A program made the translations under genes and the position numbers. From positions 14,286-78,285 of the forward strand of contig JAFGGD010000059.1 in NCBI GenBank assembly GCA_016930695.1: a DNA stretch of 64,000 bases. Direction: 5' to 3'. Below are positions 5,581-38,871 of this stretch, piece by piece. The stretch comes from Candidatus Eiseniibacteriota bacterium. GTDB taxonomy: Bacteria > Orphanbacterota > Orphanbacteria > Orphanbacterales > Orphanbacteraceae. Each line of letters opens with the position of its first letter. The first letter of the stretch is position 1. The notes under the pieces are model-generated. The model ran no database searches. It worked only from the letters and a program-made list of their open reading frames with translations, and had not been told where the DNA came from.

Positions 5581-5955
5581 TTACTTCTTCGGTCTTCTCG
5601 TTCCGTACTTGGAACGGCTCTGAGTGCGACCATCGACGCCGGAAGCGTCGAGCGCGCCCCGGATGATATGGTAACGGACACCGGGCAGGTCCTTCACTCG
5701 TCCGCCGCGAACCAGCACGAGAGAGTGCTCCTGCAAATTGTGCCCCTCACCGGGAATATAACTGGTCACCTCGATCCCGTTCGTCAGCCGAACGCGGGCC
5801 ACCTTCCGTAGCGCCGAGTTCGGCTTCTTCGGGGAGGTGGTATACACGCGCGTGCAAACGCCCCGCTTCTGCGGACACGCCTGCAGGGCCGGCGCCTTGG
5901 TTTTGTTCTTCGCCACCTTTCGGCCCTTTCGGACCAACTGACTGATCGTCGGCAA
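5581..5955 (-). CDS. rpsL: 30S ribosomal protein S12
   Basis: [12 protein letters not shown]...[10 protein letters not shown]...[12 protein letters not shown]. Confidence 0.99.
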
Positions 5956-6024
5956 CGCTCACGACCTCCCGGGCTGAAACCCGTTCCAAATTAAGGGCAT
6001 AGACGAAATAGTCTGAAGCAAGCC

Positions 6025-10203
<4,179 letters not shown>

Positions 10204-35969: not shown

Positions 35970-36830
35970 CTAGCGGCGTTTCCGAGCGCCTTTTTTCGAT
36001 GATTTTTTCGCCACCGATTTTTTTGCGGTCGACTTCGTCGTTTTCTTCGTGGGTTTTCCCGCACCGGACCGCCGCGCCGGCTTTTTCGCGACGGCCGTGG
36101 AAGACGTCCGGCGACCACCCTTCTTGGCGATAGCCGGTTTCTTTCTCGGCGCCTTCTTCTTGGTCACCTTCTTGCCCGCGGTTTTCTTCCGTGAAACGCC
36201 CTTTGTTTTTTTCACGGACCCCTTCTTGCGGGCGGTTTTCTTCGTCGCGGGCTTTTTCTTGGCGTTCTTGGCGGGACGCGGAGAGGTTTTCTTGGTCTTC
36301 TTTTTCGTGGTTTTCTTGGTGGGTTTGGGCTTCGGTTTCCGGACCGTCTTCTTCATCTGTTTGGGGGGGGATTCACTGCTACCCCGTGACTTCGCCCGGG
36401 AGCCCTCCTTCTTCCCGGTGGCCGTCGCCACGGCCTCCGCGGGGGCTTTCTTCTTCTGCGATTGCGCGGCCGGCGCCTTCTTCCCGGCCTTCCCCTCTTT
36501 CGCCGCGACTTTCTCCTGCTTTTTTTTCTTCGGAGCCGGGTATACGATACGCCCGCAGAACTCGCACTGGATAACCTCGGTCCCCATTTTCTGAATAATC
36601 AGGTTGGTTTCCGGGTACTTCATTCCGCACCCCTGGCAAACCAGATCCTCGATCACCGCCAGCCCGGTTCCGCTTCTTTCTTTTCGCAGGCGATAATAAT
36701 GGAGAAGGTCGGGGTCTATCTTGTTTTCAACTCGGCGGGCCTTGGCCTTCTTCTCCTCCTTGCGCATACGCTTGCGCTCGATCTCTTCCAGTTTGAGAAG
36801 AAGCTGGACCTGTGGGTGCATGTCGATCAT
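35970..36830 (-). CDS. C4 zinc-ribbon (DUF164/CT398-like) protein fused to a ~190-aa Lys/Ala-rich histone-H1-like tail
   Basis: LLHYYRLRK...GLAVIEDLVCQGC...QCEFCGRIVY, then KKT/KKA-rich low-complexity sequence. Confidence 0.8.
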   Translation of the reverse strand: MIDMHPQVQLLLKLEEIERKRMRKEEKKAKARRVENKIDPDLLHYYRLRKERSGTGLAVIEDLVCQGCGMKYPETNLIIQKMGTEVIQCEFCGRIVYPAPKKKKQEKVAAKEGKAGKKAPAAQSQKKKAPAEAVATATGKKEGSRAKSRGSSESPPKQMKKTVRKPKPKPTKKTTKKKTKKTSPRPAKNAKKKPATKKTARKKGSVKKTKGVSRKKTAGKKVTKKKAPRKKPAIAKKGGRRTSSTAVAKKPARRSGAGKPTKKTTKSTAKKSVAKKSSKKGARKRR

Positions 36831-37052
36831 CGCTCGATTCCCGTCGAGGCCGGGGCCTGGTCAAGGATCCCCGCCGCCCCTTCGCTGTTTGGAGGCTTAC
36901 GAGATCGATCCCAGGCGACGGAGAAACAAACCAGGGTGTGGAGGGACGCCCGTAATCCGTTCTGGTAAAAAAATACCATGTTCGAGAAGGGAGAAAAGAA
37001 AAATCGACACGCGGGTTTGGCTGGGCCACACAACCAATTGTAATTAATGACG

Positions 37053-37925
37053 TTAAATTGCCTGGTCGTCTTGGGATCCGGCGAGAAGCTCCTGAAACAG
37101 TCGCTCGAATTCTTCCGTCCCGTAGTACTCGATCTCGATAACCCCGCCCGCGCCGACAGGACGGATTCGTACACGAGTCCCGAAACGGAGGCGGAGCTTT
37201 TCCTCCAAAGACTCGATCTGGGGGTCTCTTCGGGCGGGTGATCTGCTCTTTTTCTTCCGCGGCGGCCGAACACCGCGACCGAGTTCCTCGGTGCGGCGCA
37301 CCGAGAGCCCTTCTCGTAACACTCTTTTAAATAAGCCGTTGCGCGACTCTTCGTCCGCAACCTGCAGAAGCGCCCTTCCATGACCGGCCGTGATCTTCCC
37401 CTCCGCCAATGCTCTGCGAATCGGCTCGGCCAGGCGGAGAAGACGAATGGAATTCGTGATGGAGGTGCGATCCCTGCCGACCAGTTCGGAAACGGTCTCG
37501 TGCGTCAATCCCTGCTCTTCGATGAGAACGCGGAACGCCTCCGCTTCCTCCACAGGATCGAGGTCTTCCCTCTGCAGGTTCTCGATCAGCGCCCACTGCA
37601 GCATATCCTCGTCGGGGACTTCGCGTACAACCACGGGGACCTTATGCAACCCCGCCTTTTTCGCCGCCAGAAAACGTCTCTCGCCGGCAACGATTTGAAA
37701 ACCATCTCCTGTGGGCCGCACGACAATGGGTTGCAGAATCCCCTTCGCCCGAATCGATTCCGCCAGCTCTTGGATCTTTTCGGGGTCGAAACGCCTACGG
37801 GGCTGTGCTTCATTAGGAACGATCTGCTCGATCGGAGCCTCATTAACCGGTCGTGTTTTATCCAACTCAGATGGATTAGCGGAGAGCAGCGCTTCCAACC
37901 CCCTGCCCAGCACCCTTTTCGTCAT
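37053..37925 (-). CDS. parB: Chromosome partitioning protein ParB/Spo0J
   Basis: [41 protein letters not shown]. Confidence 0.97.
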
Positions 37926-38679
37926 TTTCGATCACCTCTTTGGCTAGCGCCAAGTAACACCTTGCGCCCAAACAAGTTACGTCATATAAAAGGATGGGTT
38001 TGCCGAAACTGGGCGCTTCGCTCAGGCGCACATTTCGAGGAATTACGGTCTGGTATACCTTTTGGGGGAAATATGCCCTTGCCTCTTCCGCCACCTGCCT
38101 GCACAGATTGAGGCGGCGGTCATACATGGTCAGCAACACCCCCTCGAGATTGAGGCCCGGGTTGAGGTTCTTCTGAATCAGACGAACCGTGTTGAGAAGC
38201 TGAGTCAGGCCCTCGAGAGCGTAATACTCGCATTGTATCGGGATCAGTACAGTATCCGCCGCCGCGAGAGCATTTACCGTGAGAAGGCCAAGAGAGGGAG
38301 GGCAATCAATGAAAATATAATCATAATCATCCTTTACGGCATCGAGCGCCTTTTGCAGGCGGTACTCCCTCCCCATTTCGCTGACAAGTTCGATCTCAGC
38401 GCCCACTAAATCCCGGCTGGAAGGGACAAAATCGAGAAAACGGGTCTCTGTCTGTCGAATGACCTCTCGGATCGGCGTCGACTCCAGAAGTACCTCGTAA
38501 ATAGATGCGTCCTCGTCGGAAGCCGAAATCCCCAAACCGCTCCCCGCATTGGCCTGGGGATCGATATCGACCAACAGGGTCCTTTTCTCCGCCACTGCAA
38601 TGCTGGCGGACAGGTTCAAGGCGGTGGTCGTCTTGCCGACCCCACCCTTCTGATTGGCGACTGCGATGATTCGTCCCAT
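37876..38679 (-). CDS. parA: Chromosome partitioning ATPase ParA/Soj
   Basis: [46 protein letters not shown]. Confidence 0.97.
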
Positions 38680-38693
38680 CTCTGTCCTAACGA

Positions 38694-38709
38694 CGTTTCA
38701 CGTGAAACA
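38694..38709. promoter_or_regulatory. parS: parS centromere-like site
   Basis: CGTTTCACGTGAAACA, 15/16 match to TGTTTCACGTGAAACA, 14 nt upstream of parA. Confidence 0.9.
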
Positions 38710-38871
38710 TCCAAGAGACCCTTCCTGGATCGAGATGATAGGAGACGCGAGGCGTTCTGACAAGGGGGAATCGTGATCTCCAAAAAATGGACCGGGATCC
38801 CCTTTTGACACGGAGATGAACTCCGGTCTATTCTGCAAGGAGCTTTGTTGTTTTTGAAAAGGAGAAAGAGA

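Follow-up and report, generated by a model that had tools for sequence, protein, structure and literature searches.

DUF164 proteins have been reported to partner with sigma-54, sigma-66 and RNA polymerase (PMC3372290, PMC6426960, bioRxiv 10.64898/2026.07.15.738315). HP0958 (FlgZ) stabilises RpoN and its ribbon cysteines are required, and the ribbon domain of this protein has been discussed as an interaction module for nucleic acid or protein (PMC3372290). CT398 (CdsZ) binds the sigma-54 holoenzyme according to work cited in PMC6426960, and the Waddlia homologue Wcw_1456 was reported to bind heparin, to co-localise with DNA, to give 835 ChIP peaks and to pull down RpoD (PMC6426960). In AF3 models, the ribbons of ML1638 and CT398 sit on the beta' shelf and jaw of RNA polymerase, and sigma is contacted via the coiled-coil tip (bioRxiv 10.64898/2026.07.15.738315). 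Lysine-rich tails resembling histone H1 have been described on other bacterial proteins. The H1-like tail of Streptomyces DdbA (SCO2075) binds and condenses DNA (PMC3643593), and the tails of PhaF and AlgP in Pseudomonas are tethers for cargo, which they attach either to the nucleoid or to polyP (PMC9239181).

Here we describe a protein family in which a DUF164 ribbon and an H1-like tail are joined. No named or described member of this family was found in the literature and database sources searched. Both the ribbon and the tail belong to known kinds, and joining them in this way follows a principle already seen in DdbA, AlgP and PhaF. The family adds a natural example of a design that recurs, in which a small domain for docking is joined to a histone-H1-like polycation. 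Its practical importance is restricted by its confinement to a single small uncultured lineage and by the fact that every function ascribed to it is inferred.

The gene lies at 35970–36830 on the minus strand of the window, by which we mean the whole 64-kb stretch of DNA that was analysed. The open reading frame encodes 286 aa, with the stop codon at 35970–35972 included in these coordinates. In the alignments, orthologous proteins all start with MH/MNxQV, which makes M4 the likelier start codon, and the true start of the protein is probably the ATG at 36821. The distance from the parB stop codon is 222 nt to the first ATG and 231 nt to M4. Composition, structure prediction and comparison with orthologues divide the protein into a head of residues 4–99 (36534–36821, minus strand), with three short helices and a C4 zinc ribbon, and a polycationic, disordered tail of residues 100–286 (35973–36533, minus strand).

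Several searches relate the head to the ribbon end of DUF164 proteins. In the protein search, the Pfam family Zn_ribbon_9 (PF02591) matched residues 64–96 (36543–36641, minus strand) with an E value of 2.3e-6 and 28.0 bits, and in a six-frame search of the genome the tailed gene scored 30.5 bits, above the gathering cut-off of 29.1 bits; orthologues P0001 and P0002 scored 28.9 and 22.1 bits. The NCBIfam model for CdsZ (NF047363) aligned at model positions 154–246 of 251, with a score of 29.8 against a cut-off of 275. The DUF164 motif as published, Y/F-x18-23-CxxC-x18-26-CxxC (PMC3372290), is present in the head as Y46-x18-C65QGC68-x20-C89EFC92, and the four cysteines, Y46 and G93-R94-I95 are invariant across orthologues. 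The C4 ribbon (CQGC...CEFC) had been noticed in the sequence-only reading and is indeed formed by C65-QG-C68 and C89-EF-C92. That reading had also given the head a single short N-terminal helix; AF2 instead predicted three, at residues 3–16, 21–34 and 37–50, placing ~50 aa of helices ahead of the ribbon. The AF2 model of the head had a mean pLDDT of 83.6 (85–95 for most residues) and a pTM of 0.72. When this model was used in Foldseek, the matches were 4ilo (E 3.6e-5), 3na7 (1.5e-4) and 5y05/5y06 (9e-4 for 5y06), the fold ranked next having an E value of 2.9. Its superposition on 4ilo covered 76 columns at 1.8 A. A profile built from ten orthologous heads retrieved only CT398 (4ILO, E 7e-6), MSMEG_4306 (5Y05) and HP0958 (3NA7) from the PDB, and these alignments covered the C-terminal ~80 residues of the three proteins. 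When 1.84 billion representatives were searched exhaustively with HMMER, 607 hits were obtained, mostly DUF164 proteins of ~235 aa aligned in their C-terminal part (~150–235). The coiled-coil hairpin CT398_CC (PF24481) was not found in the tailed protein by Pfam. Since the head is without the coiled coil and matches CT398, HP0958 and MSMEG_4306 solely at their ribbon ends, it is a truncated DUF164 module that has kept the ribbon and the last helices.

The structurally characterised DUF164 proteins CT398/CdsZ (4ILO), HP0958/FlgZ (3NA7) and MSMEG_4306/ML1638 (5Y05/5Y06) have the C4 motif in common with the tailed protein, Y-x18-CxxC-x20-CxxC, and in CT398, HP0958 and MSMEG_4306 the last helices and the ribbon fold alike, with query-normalised TM scores of 0.5–0.6 and rmsd values of 1.8–3.3 A. 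However, proteins of the CT398 type (PF24481 with PF02591) have an antiparallel coiled-coil hairpin of ~170 residues, which the tailed protein lacks and the canonical paralogue in the same genome has. Full-length proteins of this type are also known for binding to RpoN, to the RNA polymerase holoenzyme or to regulators of the T3SS/flagellar ATPase. The ribbon is N-terminal in the tailed protein, whereas it is C-terminal in the family of CT398, HP0958 and MSMEG_4306. A polycationic tail such as its 186-aa one was absent from all 75 further DUF164 proteins that we examined. The sequence-only reading had held that DUF164 proteins normally carry no basic tail, and this agrees with the C-terminal tails of 49 canonical and 26 mini forms, which were non-basic and at most 33 aa long.

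In a maximum-likelihood tree of 82 ribbon modules (101 alignment columns), the tailed proteins formed one clade with support of 100/99 on a long stem. We considered whether the head derives from the clade of mini-DUF164 proteins encoded next to ptsN; the tree, in which the tailed clade is monophyletic, gave this derivation no support over one from the canonical forms. Modules of ~100 aa comprising helices and ribbon were also observed at the N termini of proteins from other lineages (P0012, P0013, P0015, P0016, P0023 and P0047), where the C-terminal partners are receiver (REC-like) domains, strongly acidic tails or a carbohydrate-binding-like domain. Standing alone behind ptsN, or joined to receiver domains, to acidic tails or to the basic tail described here, the DUF164 ribbon shows that it can serve as a portable module even when the coiled coil is missing.

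The tail was estimated at about 190 aa in the sequence-only reading, with roughly one-third lysine and KKT/KKA/KKP repeats, and its measured properties are close to this: 186 aa (residues 101–286) with 33.9% K, 14.5% A, 10.2% T, 8.6% S, 7.5% P and 7.5% R, a net charge of about +72, and KKT eight times, KKA four times and KKP three times. From residue ~100 onward, AF2 run with the full-length alignment gave a pLDDT of about 45–60 and zero secondary structure. The tail is thus H1-like in the sense of a long, low-complexity, disordered basic region rich in K, A, P and T, although the Hc1 and HC2 families had zero Pfam matches in the protein at E values up to 1. Orthologous tails are 90–231 aa long and all basic (K+R 0.33–0.52, D+E at most 0.08), but they cannot be aligned with each other, and some are rich in K while others are rich in R, P and A with a proline-rich spacer. 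Two of the orthologous genes contain in-frame tandem arrays, of 51 nt x6.8 with 93% identity (L017) and of 42 nt x6.0 with 94% identity (L016), and the tail in the window has only weak two-copy repeats of 9–15 nt. The tail is fast-evolving and yet kept in every orthologue. That the tails are always basic while being unalignable, and that repeat arrays have arisen recently, indicates selection for charge and length and not for sequence. Hc2 and AlgP have been described as behaving in this way (PMC2848022, PMC9239181).

A described protein for comparison is DdbA, which likewise joins a lysine-rich H1-like segment to a small C4 zinc module of a family associated with RNA polymerase (PMC3643593), and which is likewise restricted to one lineage and found alongside tail-less paralogues. 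It differs in that its zinc module is of the DksA type, unrelated to that of DUF164, in that the domain order is reversed, and in that its basic part is ~93 aa with S/T-A-A-K-K pentapeptides. Further, the DNA binding and condensation of DdbA have been shown by experiment, whereas those of the tailed protein are predicted. AlgP and PhaF resemble the tailed protein in having a short helical N-terminal head followed by a disordered, lysine-rich repeat tail of 150–200 aa, which ties their cargo to the nucleoid or other polyanions and is a hot spot of repeat variation (PMC9239181). Their heads, however, are unrelated and without a zinc ribbon, they are not linked to parAB, and the repeats of AlgP are KPAA as opposed to the KKT/KKV/KKA type of the tailed family. 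Chlamydial Hc1 and Hc2 share with it a lysine-rich low complexity and a size that varies by in-frame tandem repeats (PMC2848022), but they have no ribbon head.

Based on these comparisons, we hypothesize that the protein is an adaptor in the manner of DdbA and AlgP, in which a polycationic DNA tether is combined with a DUF164 ribbon that docks a protein, probably RNA polymerase or a sigma factor; we give this explanation about an even chance of being correct. The tail would bind DNA non-specifically, as do the H1-like tails of Hc1/Hc2, AlgP, PhaF and DdbA, and the ribbon head would dock a partner, for which RNA polymerase or a sigma factor is the most plausible candidate because of the homology with CT398, HP0958, Wcw_1456 and ML1638. 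The partner would in this way be held or concentrated on the nucleoid, with some local compaction added, a working mode like that of DdbA with its H1-like domain and RNA polymerase-binding zinc finger. The genomic setting agrees with this adaptor in that a mini-DUF164 gene follows ptsN, the canonical DUF164 gene follows rpoD and RpoN is encoded in the genome. Should the head bind RNA polymerase, chromatin and transcription would have been coupled in a DdbA-like way for a second time and independently.

Other considerations count against the adaptor. The supposed link to RNA polymerase or sigma factors is a transfer, across about 20% identity, from full-length members of the DUF164 family, and the coiled-coil tip that is predicted to contact sigma in the AF3 models is missing from the tailed protein. 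The strict linkage to parB is left unexplained by it. Nucleic acid is an equally possible ligand of the ribbon, given that HP0958 reportedly binds flaA mRNA, and lysine tails bind RNA and polyphosphate too. The protein might be thought of as RNA-binding or ribosome-associated, with ribbon and tail both on mRNA or rRNA and a role as an RNA chaperone or in connection with translation. Disordered tails with a high lysine content are found on many proteins that bind RNA, and the HP0958 ribbon, as noted above, has been considered a nucleic-acid as well as a protein module (PMC3372290). We nevertheless regard an RNA role as improbable: the gene context contains no ribosomal or RNA-processing genes, the leader is unstructured and without an Rfam match, and the tail, in composition and repeat dynamics, fits H1-like tails that bind DNA no less well.

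The location of the gene may point to a different partner for the head. Upstream of it, on the same strand, are parB (37053–37925, minus strand), with ParB_N, HTH_ParB and ParB_C domains, and parA (37876–38679, minus strand; AAA_31/CbiA), which overlaps parB by 50 nt; both have full Pfam domain sets and are also recognised by NCBIfam. At 38694–38709, 15 nt upstream of the parA start, is the parS-like palindrome TGTTTCACGTGAAACG (not assigned to a strand), which has one mismatch to the consensus and is the only match with three or fewer mismatches in the 64-kb window. By its motifs and domain content, the locus is a genuine parS-parA-parB locus. A sigma-70-like promoter match was also seen near parS and the parA start, at 38763–38735 on the minus strand. 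There was no GC-skew switch that would place a replication origin within the window. A phage or defence origin of the tailed gene was rejected, as it had no PHROGs match.

The gene was found in 9 of 10 species of a small phylum-level lineage (Candidatus Eisenbacteria), comprising all nine genomes of one family, and in two additional metagenome contigs from ENA (L001 and L002). A scan of JGI metagenomes gave one strong match (L127), which is identical to the orthologue from genome G004 and hence not an independent family member. The only genome from the sister family has no tailed gene and carries an unrelated 278-aa gene after parB. The sequence-only reading had noted that the gene is co-oriented with parA-parB and 222 nt downstream, which is the case in the window, and had named the absence of either the tail or the parAB linkage from homologues as an outcome that would refute it. 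Both were present at every locus with readable flanks: the order parA-parB-tailed gene was seen in 8/8 other family genomes and in the two ENA contigs. The linkage is therefore real, but it was measured inside one family.

This arrangement, directly behind parA-parB in eight family genomes and two metagenome contigs while the gene 3' of the tailed gene varies by genome (sulfatase, methyltransferase/GT, Pterin_4a and others), is what would be expected of an accessory factor of ParABS, whose ribbon would dock ParB, ParA or SMC and whose tail would bridge or compact origin-proximal DNA or link the partition complex to the bulk nucleoid. The parS site at the locus is in keeping with such a role. 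So is a feature of ParB: in the family with the tailed gene, ParB continues past the dimerisation domain with a short acidic extension (37053–37080 in the window; also L015–L020 and L002), and the ParB of the sister-family genome, which lacks the tailed gene, lacks it too and ends earlier, at REQR (L113). This hints that the acidic extension may track the tailed gene, although the outgroup is a single genome (n = 1). Other observations weaken the case. The association is one of synteny in one family whose ParB proteins are 63–75% identical, and a divergent beta-CASP gene upstream of parA is equally conserved, so that the linkage could reflect inherited gene order. In its domains and its CTD, ParB is unremarkable, and we know of no DUF164 protein that binds ParB. 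The promoter-like box described below, carried by spacers of 222–376 nt, suggests separate transcription. On balance, we consider an accessory role in ParABS unlikely, while it would, if the head does bind ParB, make the protein a new component of the partition complex.

A bolder form of the same idea is that the protein is a hitherto unrecognised partition component of this candidate phylum, with the ribbon binding ParB (perhaps via the acidic extension) or ParA and the tail bridging parS-ParB to flanking DNA, thereby replacing or reinforcing condensation by ParB at the origin. We judge this to be less likely again. That ParB lacks the basic residues of its CTD and the tail compensates for them was ruled out, as the orthologous ParB proteins retain K/R in the loop.

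The spacer between parB and the tailed gene occupies 36831–37052 (222 nt, minus strand), and its counterparts at orthologous loci are 140–376 nt long. Alignment of these intergenic regions revealed a box, ATGGTAYnTTT, common to 5/9 spacers (the window, L015, L001, L019 and L020), which in the window is ATGGTATTTTTTT at 36967–36979 on the minus strand, about 140–150 nt upstream of the start of the tailed gene. The box resembles an extended -10 element or the Bacteroidota-type TAnnTTTG element and is a candidate promoter. Its conservation makes separate transcription of the tailed gene plausible. A scan for intrinsic terminators found none after parB on the minus strand of the 222-nt gap, where a weak hairpin is visible by eye. 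In terms of the adaptor proposed above, the fixed place of the gene behind parAB, with what is apparently its own promoter, may have to do with co-regulation or with origin-proximal gene dosage and not with a physical part in partition. A structured leader or riboswitch in the spacer was ruled out by a fold z-score of +1.05 and zero Rfam matches. Just before the start codon, at 36822–36850 on the minus strand, we observed a hairpin with a purine-rich loop (CTCGA-CGGGAA-TCGAG), despite which folding of the whole leader showed no significant stability. A hairpin of different sequence, GACTCG-N17-CGAGTC, is present right upstream of the start in L016, L017 and L018.

The tailed protein is not the only product of this genome with a lysine-rich segment. 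A pyruvate phosphate dikinase, PPDK (PPDK_N, PEP-utilizers and PEP-utilizers_C domains; C32:127635–130619, plus strand; L115 160–3144), has a lysine-rich C-terminal tail of ~85 aa, which is patchy in distribution, being present in some relatives (e.g., G001) and absent or interrupted by stop codons in others. A LonC/LonB-like AAA protease (C23:80235–82865, minus strand; L116 236–2866) has a lysine-rich N-terminal extension of ~70 aa. There is also a stand-alone 92-aa protein consisting almost entirely of KKKV(A/T) repeats (C32:29747–30025, plus strand; L103 1248–1526), which had zero Pfam matches and is a candidate for a dedicated H1/Hc1-like nucleoid protein. With such segments on PPDK, on a Lon-like protease and as a protein of their own, lysine tails are a habit of the lineage. 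They might then be no more specific than a generic tether to polyanions, such as polyphosphate granules, by which assorted proteins are placed on an anionic scaffold, and AlgP is indeed localised to polyP granules via such a tail (PMC9239181). We see little chance that this accounts for the tailed protein, as no polyP genes were seen in its context and its tail is universal among orthologues whereas that of PPDK is patchy. The genome also has four HU/IHF genes, and together with the gene for the 92-aa H1-like protein these rule out the tailed protein as the sole nucleoid protein.

The sequence-only reading had gone on to propose a nucleoid-condensing factor of the ParABS locus. The fusion of ribbon and tail and the linkage to parAB on which it drew have both stood, and both are conserved. 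As an account of function, it is one possible reading and not the best supported, in view of the published RNA polymerase and sigma partners of DUF164 proteins, the promoter-like box, the recurrence of lysine tails, the four HU/IHF genes and the H1-like protein.

In total, three Zn_ribbon_9 genes were found in the genome by six-frame search: the tailed gene, a canonical gene and a mini form. The canonical DUF164 gene (CT398_CC with Zn_ribbon_9) is on contig C60 (L095 910–1614 and 1566–2219), with the 3' end of rpoD on one side and an RNase H gene on the other. An arrangement of DUF164 with RNase H is known in mycobacteria, and the neighbourhood of the canonical gene echoes it. The mini-DUF164 gene encodes 114 aa and is located directly after ptsN on contig C13 (ptsN 6105–6566 and mini 5748–6092, both on the minus strand). 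The pair of ptsN (EIIA-Ntr) and mini-DUF164 (112–114 aa) seems to be undescribed and would fit the link between DUF164 and RpoN. It was observed in 22/24 loci (L028–L094), the other two being cut by contig ends, and its hosts include Krumholzibacteria, Fibrobacteraceae, KSB1, genomes labelled as Eisenbacteria and other MAGs.
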